48,298 nucleotides of DNA from an uncultured Victivallales bacterium (lineage in GTDB: Bacteria; Verrucomicrobiota; Kiritimatiellia; JAQICX01). The notes beneath the pieces were generated by a model. It did no database searches. It had not been told where the DNA came from and was given only the letters and a program-made list of their open reading frames with translations. The position numbers and the translations under genes were made by a program. The stretch lies in assembly GCA_964441455.1 (NCBI GenBank), contig CAYTUX010000282.1, positions 1 through 48,298 of the forward strand. Direction: 5' to 3'. This document shows positions 1-45,573 of the stretch, piece after piece (the first letter of the stretch is position 1; every line of letters begins with the position of its first letter).

Positions 1-240
1 TTCTAATGCGGACGCCGAGGACGTATTAGCTCCTGCCCTGTTTAGGGGAGGTGTCCGAGACACGACAAAGGAAGTGAGGCTGGAGCCTGCGACAGCAATA
101 AAAAGTAGTGTAATGTCCTACCGAGGACGGAGGGGTTCTTCCTCCCAAGTAAACCTTGCATATCAGTGTTAAATTGCAAGTTTACCCCGGGAGGGTCATC
201 GTCCCCGATGACTAAAATTAGGAAGAAACTGTAGGGATAC
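1..240. ncRNA. GC-rich structured element, copy A (cut by the window edge); paralogue of 40289-40484
   Basis: ORF-free GC-rich island. The reverse complement of 115-210 aligns with 40289-40390. Shared nested helices and a conserved hairpin loop. Strand unresolved. Confidence 0.45.
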
Positions 241-342
241 AAAAAAGTGGCTGTATCTCCTTGATTTATAAATAATTAGATGCAGGCTAGCCTGCAAACT
301 TTTGCCATAACCACTACAAAAACTACGAGAACAAGGAAAAAT

Positions 343-6720: not shown

Positions 6721-6791
6721 TATGAGAGTTATGGAAATTATATTTTGTGTTAAACATGTTACATAATTCCCATCGTTCACATGATTCCCAT
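6721..6791. repeat. three copies of the dispersed ATGGGAAYNATGTG core (one degenerate forward copy, two reverse)
   Basis: ACATAATTCCCAT at 6761-6773, CACATGATTCCCAT at 6778-6791, and degenerate TATGAGAGTTATGGAAATTAT at 6721-6741 in the opposite orientation. Confidence 0.5.
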
Positions 6792-6820
6792 TCTTTAAAT
6801 TATAGAACGAAACAAAAAAG

Positions 6821-7923: not shown

Positions 7924-7984
7924 GAATTAGTCTGATAGTTAGATGGCTGGTTAGGTTCGGAATTCGCAAAATGGGATACACATA

Positions 7985-8189
7985 GGTCGGTCTGCCCAGC
8001 TGTCAAACCCTGCGGGCAATATCTGCTGGCTGTGGCAGGCTTCGAAGTAAGTCCGGTCTCTGCTGAGACCAGCTACAGGTGCAGCAGACTGATCAATGTT
8101 TAATATGGTGATTAGCGTATTGTAGCCGAGGTCAGCCTGTCCAGCTGTCAAACCCTGCGGGGAATATTTGCTGGCTGTGGCAGACCTCG
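7985..8189 (+). promoter_or_regulatory. tandem pair of about 60-nt imperfect hairpins (7985-8044, 8127-8189) with a perfect small hairpin between them (8055-8070)
   Basis: The two units differ at 7 of 63 positions. The differences in the stem keep pairing only as G-U on the + strand. The second hairpin ends 6 nt before the AAGGA RBS of the GT4 gene. Confidence 0.55.
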
Positions 8190-8207
8190 AAAAAAAAAGG
8201 ATATTTA

Positions 8208-31059: not shown

Positions 31060-31086
31060 AATTGTAAGAACAGGCAGGCACCAAGA

Positions 31087-31105
31087 CCAAGCACATAGTT
31101 CCCAT
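31087..31105 (-). repeat. copy of the dispersed ATGGGAAYNATGTGCTTGG core
   Basis: CCAAGCACATAGTTCCCAT on +, between the convergent genes cysK and mntP. Confidence 0.5.
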
Positions 31106-31117
31106 AATCTTAGCATT

Positions 31118-31672
31118 TCAGATGAAGTGAGTCACCAGAACTTTTATTCCAATCATAATCAAAATAACGCCTCCAAAAATCTCAACTTTACTCTCAAAAA
31201 TGTGTCCAAACAACTTGCCGATATAAGCACCTAAGAAAGAAAACACAAAAGTTATAATACCAATAAATAAAACTGGCAACAAAACTTTAACATTCAAGAC
31301 AGACAATGTAATTCCTACAGCAAAAGCATCAACACTTGTTGCAATTGCCATTATGAACAAAACATATATATTTAAGGGATTACTATACTTTGCTTCTGAA
31401 ATCTGATAACTTTCATAAATCATTTTTGTTCCAACAAAAACTAAAAGAACAAAAGCGATCCAATGACCAAAAAATTCAAGGAAACGACCTGCAAAGTTTG
31501 CCAGAAACCATCCAAGTAGAGGCATAACAGCTTGAAACAAACCAAAGAAACCTGCAATTAACAATGCGTGCTTAATATGCATTTTTTTTATCACGGCACC
31601 ACTACTTATGGAAACAGCAAATGCATCCATGGTCAACCCCAGGGCAATAAATATAATAGTAACTATTGACAT
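31118..31672 (-). CDS. mntP: manganese efflux pump MntP
   Basis: Two DAFAV motifs, 6 TM segments, 184 aa. Confidence 0.88.
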   Translation of the reverse strand: MSIVTIIFIALGLTMDAFAVSISSGAVIKKMHIKHALLIAGFFGLFQAVMPLLGWFLANFAGRFLEFFGHWIAFVLLVFVGTKMIYESYQISEAKYSNPLNIYVLFIMAIATSVDAFAVGITLSVLNVKVLLPVLFIGIITFVFSFLGAYIGKLFGHIFESKVEIFGGVILIMIGIKVLVTHFI

Positions 31673-32156: not shown

Positions 32157-32180
32157 ATTAAATTTCCTTTTTTCCTGTAC

Positions 32181-32291
32181 GGGCGACATTCTTGTCGCCC
32201 TTTTATCTTTCGGCAGACATTCTTGTCGCCCTTTTATCTTTCGGCCGACATTCTTGTCGCCCTTTTCTTGCGGGCGACAAGAATGTCGCCC
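32181..32291. repeat. array of four REP-like 20-nt palindromes: three direct copies with a 31-bp period, then one inverted copy
   Basis: GGGCGACATTCTTGTCGCCC at 32181. GGCAGACATTCTTGTCGCCC at 32212. GGCCGACATTCTTGTCGCCC at 32243. GGGCGACAAGAATGTCGCCC at 32272. The 11-nt linkers TTTTATCTTTC are identical. Confidence 0.85.
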
Positions 32292-33257
32292 CTACGCAAT
32301 CCCAAAACAAAACCCCTTTTCAATTCTATACCCTCTGACAAATGCAGAGCCTTCCATCTTTTTTTTTCCTTCAGGTTGCACAAATTCAAGACTTACGCAA
32401 CCATTCCCTGTCTGCACGACCGGAGAACCATCATCTGTAAAAGATATTACAGTTCCAGGCTTAGCACCAGATAAATCAAATCCGCACACAATTAATGAAT
32501 TCCAAATCTTTAAATTCTGCTCTTTTCCGTTAATGACACACGGGGAAAAACAAACAGGCCATGAATTCATTCCCCGTATCTGATTATGCACTTCCTTAGC
32601 AGACTTACTCCAGTCAATGAGTCCGTCACTTTTTTTAAGCTTTGCTGCAAAAGTAACTAAATTATGATCTTGAGGAATTCTATCATTTGTTCCATCAAAA
32701 ATTTCTGACAATGTTTCAACAAGCAATCTACTTCCTGCACTACTTAAATTATCATGCAGTATTTCCGCTGTATCATTTTCCCCGACGGCAACCTTTGTCT
32801 GCGAGATGATATCGCCATCATCCATTTTTTCATTCATATACATTACTGTTACGCCACTGACGGTTTCACCTGCAAGCACAGCACGCTGTATCGGAGCTGC
32901 ACCACGATATTTTGGAAGCAGCGATGTATGAAGGTTTATACAACCAAACCTGGGAACATCAAGAATATCCGGTTTAATAATCTGTCCATAAGCAACAACA
33001 ACAATAATATCGGGATTGAGATCTTTAATCATCTCAATACTTTCAGGAGAGTTTACGCACTCGGGAGTCATTACATTCAGACCATTCTTCAAAGCCAAAA
33101 CTTTAACAGCCGACGGCATTAGTTTCAACTTACGACCAAATGGTCTGTCAGGTTGACTAATTACGCCAACTATCTCAAATTTACCGCAATCGATGATTGT
33201 CTTCAAAGACTCTGCCGCAATTTCCGGAGTACCCATAAATAATATTTTCTTTTTCAT
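32292..33257 (-). CDS. fmt: methionyl-tRNA formyltransferase
   Basis: FMGTPEIAA N-terminus and HTSLLPKYRGAAPIQ motif. Confidence 0.95.
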   Translation of the reverse strand: MKKKILFMGTPEIAAESLKTIIDCGKFEIVGVISQPDRPFGRKLKLMPSAVKVLALKNGLNVMTPECVNSPESIEMIKDLNPDIIVVVAYGQIIKPDILDVPRFGCINLHTSLLPKYRGAAPIQRAVLAGETVSGVTVMYMNEKMDDGDIISQTKVAVGENDTAEILHDNLSSAGSRLLVETLSEIFDGTNDRIPQDHNLVTFAAKLKKSDGLIDWSKSAKEVHNQIRGMNSWPVCFSPCVINGKEQNLKIWNSLIVCGFDLSGAKPGTVISFTDDGSPVVQTGNGCVSLEFVQPEGKKKMEGSAFVRGYRIEKGFCFGIA

Positions 33258-35206: not shown

Positions 35207-35221
35207 TCCCTTAAATTTTTC

Positions 35222-35249
35222 GTACGGGCGAGACATGTCTCGCCCCTAC
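35222..35249. repeat. REP-like palindrome GTAC-GGGCGAGACATGTCTCGCCC-CTAC
   Basis: Perfect 8-bp arms around CATG. Fills the yihY/helicase junction and reads MSRPY on both strands. Confidence 0.8.
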
Positions 35250-36700: not shown

Positions 36701-36794
36701 GTATCACTCCATTAAAAAGTTCTAATTTCAAGAAAATTGCAAACTATTGTGTTGCTTCGCAGCTTGTCTAATATTTTCTATTTGAAAAGCAAAA

Positions 36795-36819
36795 CACATC
36801 ATTCCCATAAGCCCCATAG
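36795..36819 (-). repeat. copy of the ATGGGAAYNATGTG core with a phased second unit
   Basis: The - strand reads CTATGGGGCTTATGGGAATGATGTG. Lies between the glcD-like stop and the yihY start. Confidence 0.5.
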
Positions 36820-36858
36820 TTCACATTTTTCCTCTTAACTCTTAGCACGTTTCACTTG

Positions 36859-40165: not shown

Positions 40166-40288
40166 AATATTCCTCAAAATTTCAACATTTAAAAATCTTC
40201 TGAAATTTTACAAAAAAACATACATCAAGTCTATCCCTAAGTTGAAAAAGGAAGCTTTTACGTTGATTTGACTGTTGAATTGTTTTTC

Positions 40289-40484
40289 GGTTGCCGGGAA
40301 CGCCAACCCTCTCTATTAAAACTGCAATTTAACATTAGTCTGCAAGATTCATTAGGGAGGGATGCTGTCCCCGGCGTCCGAAGGTAACGCAACGATCTTC
40401 GTTGCAAGTACAAAACACCACCTAGCTTTGCTAACAACAATTCACAACTTGCCCCAACGCAGTTGGTGCCGCCAAGCAGTAACC
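40289..40484. ncRNA. GC-rich structured element, copy B (paralogue of 1-240)
   Basis: Helices GCCGGG/CCCGGC (40293-98/40370-75) and CCCTCTCT/AGGGAGGG (40307-14/40354-61). Conserved-loop hairpin at 40321-40350. Perfect 7-bp hairpin at 40389-40405. CCAAC-GCA-GTTGG at 40454-40466. Confidence 0.5.
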
Positions 40485-40521
40485 AAAAAAAAAAGGAATC
40501 AATTTCAATTGATTCCTTTTT
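40485..40521. terminator. bidirectional rho-independent terminator
   Basis: Perfect 10-bp inverted repeat GGAATCAATT/AATTGATTCC flanked by A10 and T5. Follows the DUF1080 gene on the - strand. Confidence 0.8.
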
Positions 40522-40538
40522 GTGTTCAACATAGAGAA

Positions 40539-41279
40539 CTATTTAGCTTCGCCTATTTCACGATACCAGATGTTTCTGAATCTTACAAGGTCGCCATGAT
40601 CTTGAAGAGCCAGAGGCAGTTTAGCATCATGATGAACGTATTTAGTTGTGACTCTGTGATCTGTTGGTCCTTGAAGGACTTGAGCATTTTGTACAACAAC
40701 ACCATTAAGAAGGATTGTAGCCCTTGCCGGTGAAATCAATTTTGTTTCATCAAACTTTGGAGCTTCCCAGATAATGTCATAAGTCTGCCATTCGCCTGGT
40801 TTTCTAGAAGGATTTACAAGTGGCGGATACTGACCATAGATACTGCCAACTGTTCCGTCAGAATATGTTGGGTTATCAAAGCAGTCAAGAACCTGAAACT
40901 CATATTTTCCCATTAGGAAAACGCCGCTGTTGCCGCGACCTTGACCATCACCTTTAACAACTTCAGGTGCAGCAAATTCAACGTGAAGCTGGCAATCACC
41001 AATAAGTTCTTTAGTCTGAATGTCACCTGTACCTGGAACTACTTCCATGTAACCATTTTCAACTTTCCATCCGGCAGGAGTACTTGCGTCACCTTTTTTT
41101 GTCCAACCGGAAAGATCTGTTCCGTCAAACAGAACAACTGCATCTGAAGGAGGAAGCATGTAAAATTTTTCCTGTGACCATTCTGTTGGTTCAACAACCT
41201 TAGGTTGTGGACGCTCTCCGTCATGTACTTTATATATTGACCCCGGAATTGTCGGAGTATCATCGTATCCTAGACTCAT
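40539..41279 (-). CDS. DUF1080 (3-keto-disaccharide hydrolase-like, LamG jelly-roll) protein
   Basis: The C-terminal [18 protein letters not shown] motif is typical of DUF1080. I chose the start at 41279 (MSLGYDD, AAAGGA RBS). The tracked 41363 start runs into a conserved non-coding leader. Confidence 0.85.
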
Positions 41280-41327: not shown

Positions 41328-41413
41328 AGTGAGATACGAGATGTGTGATATAAGATGCTTCATCGCTTGGCTACGCCAAGCACATCATTCCCATAAATCC
41401 CATATTTCCCATT
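41328..41413 (-). promoter_or_regulatory. conserved leader element upstream of the DUF1080 gene (paralogue of 45509-45573)
   Basis: Both copies share, in the same order, the blocks AAGTGAGAT, ATCGCTTG, the hairpin GCTTGGC-GTA-GCCAAGC and CACATCATTCCCATA. Three phased 9-nt units follow. Confidence 0.55.
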
Positions 41414-42774: not shown

Positions 42775-42814
42775 ATCTTTCCTGTTTATCAATTTCTAAA
42801 TTGTTTTTTTATAT

Positions 42815-42873
42815 GGGCGAGGAAGATCTAGCCCCTACATCTTAATGCAATTTGGGCGAGATGCATCTCACCC
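42815..42873. repeat. two REP-like palindromes of the GGGCGA...TCGCCC family
   Basis: GGGCGAGGAAGATCTAGCCC-CTAC at 42815-42838. GGGCGAGATGCATCTCACCC at 42854-42873. Confidence 0.7.
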
Positions 42874-45460: not shown

Positions 45461-45508
45461 ATTATTTTAGTTTATCGTTGGTCGTTAGTTTTAAATAGCG
45501 AGATGAAA

Positions 45509-45573
45509 GAAGTGAGATGTAATATGCGTTATCGCTTGACTGTGCCAAGCACATAATTCCCATATCTCTCATC
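45509..45573 (-). promoter_or_regulatory. conserved leader element upstream of mutS (paralogue of 41328-41413)
   Basis: Same block order as 41328-41413. The hairpin GCTTGGC-ACA-GTCAAGC keeps pairing only as a G-U on the - strand. Confidence 0.55.

Follow-up and report, generated by a model that had tools for sequence, protein, structure and literature searches.

Two GC-rich structured elements in the window (the whole 48,298-nt stretch analysed here), copy A upstream of murG and copy B upstream of etfB, are members of one family of about 112 nt. They are probably non-coding, multi-copy, modular palindromic repeats of the REP/REPIN-MITE kind, carried by a narrow clade of uncultured Kiritimatiellae. 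The family is new in that it has not been described before, while its kind, the REP/MITE-type selfish repeat, is known; a full-text literature search returned nothing relevant on the core sequence or on REP in Kiritimatiellae. On this reading, REP/REPIN- and MITE-type repeats would extend to an uncultured lineage of the PVC group. The features of both copies are listed in Table 1.

The A/B pair forms the longest inverted match in the window (141–184 against 40317–40360; 44 nt, 77% complementary), followed by a chance pair of 41 nt and 71%. Both copies contain CCTCCC-N8-CTTGCA-N6-TGTTAAATTGCA, and a search of the window with the 24-nt pattern CTTGCA-N6-TGTTAAATTGCA returned two matches only, A and B, both exact, against a chance expectation of 0.21 at ≤3 mismatches. 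A covariance model (R2), built from six metagenome copies with A, B and the orthologue of B left out, matches B on the minus strand (90.5 bits, E = 2e-27) and A on the plus strand (67.3 bits, E = 1e-19), and thus confirms the paralogy proposed by the first-pass annotation. On the opposite strands the model scores only 53.7 bits (B) and 36.7 bits (A), which settles the strand of B, previously left open, as minus and that of A as plus; both copies are oriented toward the next gene, as had been stated. The 3′ hairpin of B ends at 40289, 124 nt before the etfB ATG (40165), and that of A at 213, 130 nt before the murG ATG (343), in keeping with the 115–140 nt first estimated. In homologues this distance ranges from about 113 to >400 nt, and spacing to the start codon is therefore not constrained. 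Compared with shuffled sequence, folding gives z = −5.1 for B and −3.4 for A. The region originally delimited around B, 40289–40484, is indeed a GC-rich island free of credible ORFs: its GC content is 0.495 against 0.385 across the whole window, and the sole overlapping ORF is a mechanical 123-aa frame (40362–40733, plus strand), antisense to the 3-keto-disaccharide hydrolase gene and without support.

Table 1. Features of copies A and B and their surroundings (window positions; a dot marks a feature given without strand).
Feature	Position	Strand	Basis or remark
Core unit, copy B, ~112 nt, three hairpins	40276..40387	-	model R2; MFE
5′ arm of B, GGACGCCGGGGACAGCATCCCTCCC, inverted copy of 3′ arm	40355..40379	-	motif scan; half-to-half alignment
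Central hairpin of B	40314..40354	-	most conserved block TTGCAGACTAATGTTAAATTGCA at 40323-40345
3′ arm of B: GAGAGGG, hairpin GGTTGGCG-TTCC-CGGCAACC (40289-40308), GAAAAA tail	40283..40313	-	
19-nt hairpin module TGCAACGAAGATCGTTGCG, abutting B core	40388..40406	.	exact copies elsewhere
Rest of GC-rich island	40407..40484	-	read from sequence
Predicted intrinsic terminator, upstream 3-keto-disaccharide hydrolase gene	40490..40521	-	14-bp stem, then T run
etfB promoter-like site TAGACT-17-TAAAAT, downstream of B	40205..40233	-	consensus scan
Core unit, copy A	109..226	+	model R2; fold z
P2, conserved core and 3′ hairpin of copy A	P2 CCTCCC 141-146 / GGGAGG 189-194; conserved core 156-178; 3′ hairpin 194-213	+	
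Canonical 5′ end of unit A, detached from the core, TTCTAATGCGGACGCCGAGGACG	1..23	+	identity to L014, L026 units
Repeat modules inserted in unit A, incl. hairpin CTCCTGCCCTGTTTAGGGGAGGTG	24..108	+	recur elsewhere
Degenerate right inverted repeat of long unit around A, AAACTTTTGCCATAACC	296..312	+	

The core is an inverted doublet of modules, each comprising GGGAG (or CUGUAG) and a 7–8-bp hairpin, placed around a central hairpin, and this arrangement resembles that of REPINs. In every unit the 7–8-bp hairpin directly follows GGGAG(G), or CUGUAG in the L001 subfamily. The two halves of a unit are inverted copies of one another: when the 5′ half is compared as its reverse complement with the 3′ half, z reaches 10.2 in B, where the alignment spans 38 nt and none of 300 shuffles attains this value, and 10.9 in L001a, with 5.4 in L048 and 4.7 in L014a. 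According to the folding models, one unit strand can adopt either three hairpins or one long rod; the MFE structure of B (−47.3 kcal/mol) is the single rod. Compensatory changes support the three-hairpin fold, most of them falling in the 3′ hairpin (helix 4), where four of eight pairs have changed on both sides across the family (GUCAUC/GAUGAC, GUCAGC/GCUGAC, GUUGGCC/GGCCGAC, GAUAAUG/CAUUAUC). The family alignment, in which 93% of cells are paired, has a covariation score reached by 0 of 500 shuffles; the conserved nested architecture first drawn for A and B thus extends to the wider family, with covariation to support it.

Conservation is unevenly distributed along the unit. The apex of the central hairpin (UUGCA...AAUGUUAAAUUGCA) is the best-conserved part of the core, and the UGCA/UGCA pairs of this hairpin are invariant in nine copies. 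The arms differ completely between subfamilies (CCUCCC/GGGAGG vs CUACAG/CUGUAG), while the central block stays the most conserved; units L048 and L014c have a different centre and retain the arms. The hairpin loop UCCC/UCCU is kept across subfamilies, three G-U pairs are kept on the unit strand, and the alignment fold energy is −25.8 kcal/mol on that strand vs −17.9 on the opposite one. The tail of the 3′ arm, CAACCGAAAAA, is found again in L001, L044 and L045. Pairing of the 5′ GGGGACG with the 3′-hairpin loop into a pseudoknot was considered and rejected: the complementarity is real, arising from the inverted-doublet symmetry, but there are no linker nucleotides for a true H-type knot.

Beyond its core unit, the GC-rich island around B contains further repeat modules. 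Exact copies of the abutting 19-nt hairpin module occur elsewhere, three in tandem at 35-nt intervals in L053 and L054, two in L049 and one in L001. The remainder of the island had no BLAST match beyond the window's own strain; on the minus strand it opens with GGTTACTGC (40476–40484), probably a degenerate form of GGTACTGTC, the inverted repeat that bounds long units elsewhere. Copy A is likewise composite. It is a canonical unit in which an insertion of ~85 nt has separated the 5′ end from the rest: window positions 1–23 share 95–96% identity with the 5′ ends of the units in L014 and L026, and pieces of the inserted sequence recur at unrelated loci (L049 30–75, 98%; L038 12765–12795; L041 4913–4937). 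A four-copy tandem array of a module related to this insert is present in L038. The left inverted repeat of the long unit around A, GGTACTGTCAAAA, lies 42 nt past the left edge of the window (L008 8259–8271), the sequence left of the window having been taken from L008.

Four to five related metagenomic lineages carry further copies, located at unrelated loci, three of them in L014 and others in L017, L024, L026, L044, L048, L053 and L001. Multiple copies at unrelated loci are 85–97% identical; L014a and L026 share 97% identity over 129 nt despite different flanking genes. The ~67 kb covered for the window's own organism contain three clear copies, each of them between genes, plus one or two weak ones. 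The metagenome scan comprised 26 matches, 22 due to chance and four true, and in viral contigs the core pattern gave two chance matches only. No copy was seen in 21 kb of L057, the 1.6-Mb contig of a more distant relative (71% UvdE identity). Cores occur alone, as half-units, head-to-head, or within composites of 290–420 bp together with other repeat modules. The genes downstream of the units are unrelated in function (EtfB, MurG, AP_endonuc_2, D-lyxose isomerase, DUF4838, PAS, PNP_UDP_1, Metallophos and PNPOx), and of 12 independent copies, 11 point in the same direction as the gene that follows.

Presence/absence polymorphism was observed at the orthologous murG, etfB and uvdE–PNPOx sites. 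The element is missing upstream of murG in all three relatives compared (L042, L043 and L044; 86%, 83% and 75% MurG identity). Upstream of etfB it is found in one of three relatives (present in L038 and L039, absent in L040 and L001), being kept at 87% EtfB identity and absent at 96%, in the closest relative, and at 85%. In L048, from the window's own organism, and likewise in L051, the uvdE and PNPOx-like genes overlap; ~255 bp carrying a unit lie between them in L053, L054, L055 and L024. Empty uvdE sites have a single ACAAAAGGAA-like motif, and filled ones have it on both sides of the insert. A 45-nt 5′ half-unit in L048 is missing from L049, UvdE being 100% identical between the two samples. 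These comparisons show that intergenic gain and loss of cores takes place within short evolutionary times. They also illustrate how such elements remodel DNA close to promoters, as where genes that once overlapped are now apart, and natural pairs of filled and empty sites such as uvdE–PNPOx would be useful for working out the mobilising enzyme.

The long units in L014, L017 and L026 and the one around A are delimited by inverted repeats of 13–16 bp, GGTACTGTCAAAA(GTT) and its inverse, with intact pairs in L014, L017 and L026. These repeats are clear in only four of ~15 units (L014a, L017, L026 and the unit around A); B and L053 have degenerate versions, L024, L044 and L048 have none, and in L038 they are absent or degenerate. 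Judged against published IR sequences only, GGTACTGTCAAAA resembles the IR of IS26, GGCACTGTTGCAAA, and an IS431-like IR, TGGTTCTGTTGCAAAGT (PMC7864471; PMC10581047). The 8-bp repeats flanking the L017 unit, ATTAGGAT and ATTAGAAT, match at 7/8 positions, 8 bp being the typical size of an IS6 duplication, and those of L026 at 6/8; the duplication at the uvdE site is about 10 bp and of low complexity. The sequences duplicated at the uvdE site and at L017 are A-rich. No target duplication was found at A or L014a, two of the four long units. The right end of the long unit always lies 26–58 nt before a start codon. Gene tables of the retrieved loci contain no Y1_Tnp match, and no IS6-type transposase, RAYT gene or parent IS was found in these loci. 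The first-pass annotation had held that the element is not a MITE. That view does not hold up against the 85–97% identical copies at unrelated loci, the clean insertion/indel polymorphism and, in some copies, the terminal inverted repeats and short direct duplications; the grounds for refutation named in that annotation are partly borne out.

A transposase acting in trans could recognise the hairpins and/or the terminal repeats and move the element. For the IR-bounded composites, the mobiliser would be an IS6-type DDE enzyme, and for the bare doublets a hairpin-binding HUH enzyme. Copies would then persist where they do no harm, between terminators and promoters, and co-orientation with genes could result from strand-specific insertion or from selection acting on copies that are transcribed. 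If etfB or murG is affected at all, this would be incidental, for instance through RNA hairpins that alter stability or read-through, with no dedicated regulation. According to consensus scans, B sits between the predicted terminator of the upstream gene and a conserved etfB promoter-like site, the hexamers and spacing of which recur in L038 and in L040, the latter without B, and B is predicted to lie outside the etfB transcript. This position, together with the unrelated downstream genes, argues against a dedicated regulator.

Like REP, REPIN and BIME elements, the units are extragenic and short, and combine a short motif (GGGAG or CUGUAG here, GTAG in REPs) with an imperfect palindrome. They likewise occur as inverted doublets able to form a long hairpin, as singlets (L049) and as mosaics with other motifs, with compensatory changes that keep the hairpins and a patchy distribution between close relatives. 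Unlike in REPINs, the spacer between the arms is itself a conserved hairpin, and its apex, not the REP-like arms, is best conserved, which is atypical. Some insertions carry apparent 8–10-bp direct duplications and DDE-type IRs, which are not products of HUH/RAYT transposition. The non-coding long units resemble MITEs derived from insertion sequences of the IS6 family (IS26, IS257/IS431) in their bounding IRs and in the putative L017 duplication, and differ from them in the scarcity of clear IRs, in the two long units without duplication and, compared with random MITE insertion, in the constant proximity of the right end to a start codon. As in BOX elements of Streptococcus pneumoniae, ERIC/IRU of enterobacteria and Correia (NEMIS) elements of Neisseria, the organisation is modular, with boxA-boxB(n)-boxC-like shuffling and tandem modules, and the units are imperfect palindromes of 100–150 nt in putatively transcribed intergenic DNA, with stable predicted RNA folds that could alter neighbour-gene expression. 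There is no sequence relation to these elements, which belong to different phyla from the PVC group, and the orientation bias toward the downstream gene is stronger here than reported for them.

Several observations weigh against a mobile repeat: no transposase gene lies near any copy in the retrieved loci, B has degenerate terminal repeats only, A and L014a show no target duplication, the uvdE duplication is of low complexity, the centre is better conserved than the arms, nearly all copies are co-oriented with the next gene, and B persists at etfB across lineages differing by 13% in EtfB. The G-U pairs and the better fold of the unit strand are as consistent with a strand-specific RNA role as with single-strand DNA recognition. 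A functional structured RNA family is, however, rather unlikely. Its members would be multi-copy small RNAs with their own promoter, or 5′/3′ UTR elements for a common protein, with the apical loop and the UCCC tetraloop as recognition sites and the signs of mobility reflecting spread or domestication of a useful module. The compensatory changes, the G-U pairs and better fold of the unit strand, the co-orientation with genes, the conserved UCCC/UCCU loop and a −10-like box (TCTAAT; TATAAT in L024 and L053), located 2–3 nt before the first structured nucleotide of canonical copies, favour such a family. Elements recognised as folded ssDNA should show hairpin covariation just as much, though, and the −10-like box stands alone, is restricted to canonical copies and is missing in B and L038; the units have no −35 element and no terminator. 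For A and B in particular, the promoter scan found no sigma-70-like site upstream and no terminator follows the 3′ hairpins on the unit strand, so that neither has the own promoter and intrinsic terminator of a stand-alone small RNA. Nor is the earlier suggestion of a plus-strand sRNA running into a bidirectional terminator (40485–40521) supported, since the family orientation of B is minus and the scan calls the terminator on the minus strand only. Patchiness at orthologous loci, half-units and split units, and the unrelated downstream genes also speak against an RNA family. Rfam 15 contains no matching family, as anticipated by the first-pass annotation: there was no match at gathering score anywhere in the window, noise only at E ≤ 10 around A and B, and no match at E ≤ 1 in five homologous loci.

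In a related and distinctly doubtful scenario, the unit would be a domesticated, strand-specific RNA or ssDNA module of ~110 nt, with its apical loop AAUGUUAAAU and UCCC tetraloop bound by a dedicated protein. If true, this would imply a new multi-copy regulatory RNA class ahead of many unrelated genes or, alternatively, a new hairpin-guided mobile element with its recognition site in the centre instead of the arms. A function may yet emerge from the strong gene co-orientation and the conservation of the central hairpin.

We consider it very unlikely that the unit is a double-stranded DNA site, at which a recombinase or DNA-binding protein would recognise the central TTGCA-N14-TGCAA palindrome, as at the multi-copy pdif sites of Acinetobacter plasmids. 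A conserved centre between completely different arms would be expected of such a site, and the loop TAATGTTAAAT matches 10/11 bases of the XerD arm of E. coli dif (TTATGTTAAAT). However, no XerC-like arm is found at the distance such a site requires, the dif-like bases belong to a predicted loop, and L048 and L014c keep the arms around different centres; one 11-mer match among many known motifs is not significant and gives a weak lead only. It is more improbable still that A and B are a gene-specific cis-regulatory leader, a riboswitch or attenuator common to murG and etfB, as the shared orientation and distance to the start codon had first suggested. The etfB copy is conserved in one relative, and GC-rich structured islands with nested helices and some covariation before genes do recall Rfam riboswitches and 5′ leaders. 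Orthologues of both genes lack the element, however, the downstream genes have no common function, the spacing varies, and B is located upstream of the etfB promoter-like site, which is conserved even where B is absent. Chance similarity of two unrelated GC-rich intergenic hairpins can be discounted, because a model from other organisms' copies matches both and the 24-nt pattern occurs well above expectation, even if the raw inverted match is barely longer than the next pair.

Other motifs were considered and rejected on inspection. A sigma-54 promoter, TTGACAG as a sigma-70 −35 element, hammerhead or HDV-like ribozymes, CRISPR repeats and Cas12a-type repeats all had the wrong spacing or position, and in a putative integron attC site GTTRRRY would lie in the loop instead of at the base.

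For annotation, the repeat interpretation means that a GC-rich structured island in one of these AT-rich Kiritimatiellae genomes is no riboswitch candidate, such islands being mosaics of mobile hairpin modules. They also break assemblies: contig ends fall inside or beside copies at the window edge, in L007 (which starts at window position 191), in L039 and in L048.

Copies A and B, the repeat units in front of murG and etfB, probably belong to a new family of mobile repeats that are intergenic, modular and palindromic and have a REPIN-like core, which sometimes lies within IS6-like, MITE-type composites. The strongest test was a covariance model (R2) built on alignment A3, which holds metagenome copies only (n=6). 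It recovered B at 90.5 bits (E=2e-27) and A at 67.3 bits (E=1e-19), with 53.7 and 36.7 bits on the respective opposite strands, so the similarity of the two is real and B is assigned to the minus strand with etfB, A to the plus strand with murG. The first-pass annotation had already treated them as paralogues but had left the strand undecided. Its statement that they match no known RNA family also holds, as Rfam 15 gave nothing at gathering score in the window, and noise only at E<=10. No third copy was found in the window. Both copies fold far better than shuffled sequence, and the region 40289-40484 has a GC content of 0.495 (0.385 for the whole window). Several JGI and Logan assemblies contain the same DNA; a contig from Logan begins within copy A (window position 191) and the window itself begins within copy A's repeat cluster, an early sign that repeated DNA interrupts assembly here.

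Coordinates of repeat units, neighbouring genes and other repeats (window positions unless a homologous locus, L, is named)
Feature	Position	Strand	Remarks
Copy A, R2 match	109-226	+	
Copy A, split-off 5′ end	1-23		
Hairpin CTCCTGCCCTGACTTAGGGGAGGTG in copy A's insert	29-52		
Copy B, R2 match	40276-40387	-	
19-nt hairpin adjoining B	40388-40406		
Degenerate ends of B	40484-40476; 40211-40196		GGTTACTGC; GTAAAATTTCAGAAGA
dif-like loop	156-178; 40323-40345		
murG	true ATG 343	+	left edge of window
etfB	true ATG 40165	-	
etfA and FAD-linked oxidase gene		-	with etfB
3-keto-disaccharide hydrolase gene			precedes etfB group
Predicted intrinsic terminator of upstream gene	40521-40490		consensus scan
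etfB promoter-like site, TAGACT-17-TAAAAT	40233-40205		consensus scan; conserved with or without B
GTAG + GGGCGAC-loop-GTCGCCC hairpins	32172-32295; 35217-35249; 42806-42838		four copies clustered in first
63-nt direct repeat	7984-8046; 8129-8191		89% identical
ATTCCCAT-type tandem repeats	6754-6801; 31086-31124; 36789-36827; 41375-41413; 45497-45572		intergenic
Long units	L014 2603-3025; L017 1382-1707; L026 2517-2822; L008 8259-8613		
111-nt tandem units	L038 4020-4470		four copies
Central-hairpin relatives	L008 7552-7680; 4574-4657		divergent
PF05635 gene	L038 8749-8955		68 aa

In the consensus fold, a small 5′ hairpin is followed by a long central one, which CUCCC/GGGAG and UUGCA/UGCAA close and whose apex is conserved; the third hairpin, at the 3′ side, has 7-8 bp and a loop of UCCC or UCCU. 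The sequence of the canonical unit is TTTTCTAATGCGGACGCCGGGGACGGCATCCCTCCC-ATGTGAACATTGCAGGTTAATGTTAAATTGCAGGTTTAACC-GGGAGGGTCATCGTCCCCGATGACCGAAATGAAA. Standard pairs fill 93% of the pair cells in the nine copies that align well, and seven pairs have changed on both sides. The covariation score was reached by 0/500 shuffles, and sliding the fold lowered the paired fraction to 29-49%. The nested hairpins drawn in the first-pass annotation are thus borne out by compensatory changes, which lie mostly within the 3′ hairpin (GUCAUC/GAUGAC, GUCAGC/GCUGAC, GUCGGC/GCUGAC, GUUGGCC/GGCCGAC; GAUAAUG/CAUUAUC in L044; CGUCGGUC/GACCGACG in L001). Each half of the unit is an inverted copy of the other: B's 5′ half, reverse-complemented, aligns across 38 nt to its 3′ half (z=10.2), and the same symmetry recurs in units L001a (z=10.9) and L014a (z=4.7) and in L048, from the window's own organism (z=5.4). 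With GGGAG or CUGUAG plus a hairpin, each half is built like a REP, and the complete unit is a REPIN-like doublet. A candidate pseudoknot between the 5′ GGGGACG and the 3′-hairpin loop was rejected, its complementarity being simply this symmetry.

Of 26 matches to a sequence pattern in metagenome contigs, four were true homologues (L014, L017, L024, L026). When loci surrounding orthologous genes were searched with the model, two more units turned up in L014, along with others in L038/L039, L044, L048/L049 and L053-L055, and a divergent subfamily in L001. L014a and L026 are 97% identical across 129 nt next to different genes. Its range seems limited to a narrow clade, for the family has no copy in 21 kb of a 1.6-Mb contig from a more distant relative (UvdE 71% identity). 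The clearest case of gain or loss is the uvdE-PNPOx pair: these genes overlap by a few bases in L048 and L051 and stand ~255 bp apart in L053, L054, L055 and L024. The segment opens with a degenerate end of the GATACTATAAAA repeat and closes with another GTAG-hairpin module, and it contains a full unit scoring 88-120 bits; a ACAAAAGGAA-like motif occurs once in empty sites and on both sides of the insert in filled ones. A 45-nt 5′ half-unit is present in L048 and missing in L049 (UvdE 100% identical). Units are also modular. In copy A, a canonical unit, an insert of ~85 nt has split off the 5′ end; pieces of this insert recur at L049, L038 and L041, and the 19-nt hairpin adjoining B forms tandem triplets in L053 and L054 and is found in L049 and L001. 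The 111-nt units upstream of etfB in a relative (L038) share hairpin CTCCTGCCCTGACTTAGGGGAGGTG with copy A's insert. Just left of the window, one central-hairpin relative in L008 lies between CCTACA and TGTAGG before a glutaredoxin-like gene; the other lacks GC-rich arms (14-17 bits).

Units L014a, L017, L026 and A lie inside long units of 320-420 bp with ends GGTACTGTCAAAA and its inverse, which resemble published IS6-family inverted repeats (GGCACTGTTGCAAA in IS26, TGGTTCTGTTGCAAAGT in an IS431-like element; PMC7864471, PMC10581047). The 8-bp flanks are ATTAGGAT/ATTAGAAT in L017 and GTATATTG/GTATTTGG in L026; none are duplicated around A and L014a, and B has degenerate ends only. The mobilising enzyme would be an IS6-type DDE transposase and/or a hairpin-binding HUH transposase. 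The first-pass annotation is confirmed as regards a structured family, but its verdict "not a recent MITE copy" sits poorly with the multi-copy occurrence, the insertion/indel polymorphism and the terminal inverted repeats of some units. In GGTACTGTCAAAA-bounded units the right end always stops 26-58 nt short of a start codon, and the gene concerned is co-oriented. The units share a conserved block at that end (CTTAGAAC..TAGGTCTGAA..GTATAAAAC), which might be a promoter that the element carries and that faces outward; B's equivalent contains the etfB promoter-like site. No paper in the literature searched describes the element and Rfam has no family for it: the family is new, its kind (REP/REPIN, BIME, BOX, ERIC, MITE) already well known. 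Two atypical traits, the conserved centre and strong co-orientation with genes, merit a genome-wide census.

By the R2 strand, 11 of the 12 independent units for which a downstream gene could be identified run in the direction of that gene (exception, L001c), a bias beyond chance (binomial p about 0.006). This is the main point favouring a strand-specific role; other possible sources are strand-specific single-strand insertion acting together with gene-strand bias, and selection for copies that are transcribed. The main rival, a functional multi-copy RNA module, would accommodate the strand bias, three G-U pairs conserved in the family, a -10-like box (TCTAAT/TATAAT) that immediately precedes the fold in canonical copies, and a central apex conserved to an unusual degree. 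We nevertheless consider it unlikely, as units have neither a -35 element nor a terminator, half-units and split units exist, and the distribution is patchy. The alignment folds at -25.8 kcal/mol on the unit strand vs -17.9 on the complement, and the unit strand folds better in 8/12 single copies. The mobile repeat might still have some RNA-level consequence.

A dif/pdif-like DNA site is improbable. The conserved loop TAATGTTAAAT matches the E. coli dif XerD arm (TTATGTTAAAT) at 10/11 bases, but there is no matching XerC arm, so the resemblance is probably coincidence.

The shared cis-acting leader of the first-pass annotation, specific to etfB and murG, is very hard to maintain. Upstream of etfB the unit is retained in L038/L039 (87% EtfB identity; 80 bits), but it is missing in L040 (96%) and L001 (85%); the window EtfB is 85% identical to that of a Kiritimatiellae MAG. 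The glutaredoxin-murG neighbourhood is kept in L041/L042 (MurG 86%), L043 (83%) and L044 (75%), all of which lack unit A and carry other GC-rich hairpin modules in the murG spacer. In L040, window homology ends ~30 nt 3′ of the unit and the promoter-proximal part, including the promoter-like site, is retained; B thus appears to sit between the upstream gene's predicted terminator and a promoter-like site conserved with or without it. Unit-to-start-codon distances vary from about 113 to >400 nt, and the downstream genes (EtfB, MurG, xylose-isomerase-like protein, D-lyxose isomerase, DUF4838, PAS protein, nucleoside phosphorylase, metallophosphatase, PNPOx-like protein) are unrelated in function and form no regulon.

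Chance likeness of A and B is a negligible possibility in view of the R2 scores and of CTTGCA-N6-TGTTAAATTGCA, which matches twice in the window vs 0.21 expected. The two are the window's longest inverted pair (141-184 vs 40317-40360, 44 nt, 77%) and share CCTCCC-N8-CTTGCA-N6-TGTTAAATTGCA.

Other repeats were also observed. The multi-copy GTAG hairpins recur at orthologous spots in L038 and before murG in L043; at 32295 and 35249 the minus-strand gene before the hairpin has the TAG of GTAG as its stop codon. These hairpins may be REP elements, or else conserved terminators that lack a U tract. The 63-nt direct repeat, which contains CAGCTGTCAAACCCTGCGGG.AATAT, is a separate family, related copies of which occupy two further intergenic stretches of its contig (L008 4717-4785, 8060-8100). 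Between its oxidase and BrkB-like genes, L038 encodes a 23S rRNA-intervening-sequence-type protein (PF05635), where the window has only a 158-nt spacer (36701-36858). The ATTCCCAT-type tandem repeats lie mostly beside gene starts, and relatives carry other 7-8-nt tandem repeats immediately upstream of genes: CTTAGAAC (L014, L026, L038), TTTACMG (L014, L042), GTCATGA (L044) and TATGGGAC (L043).
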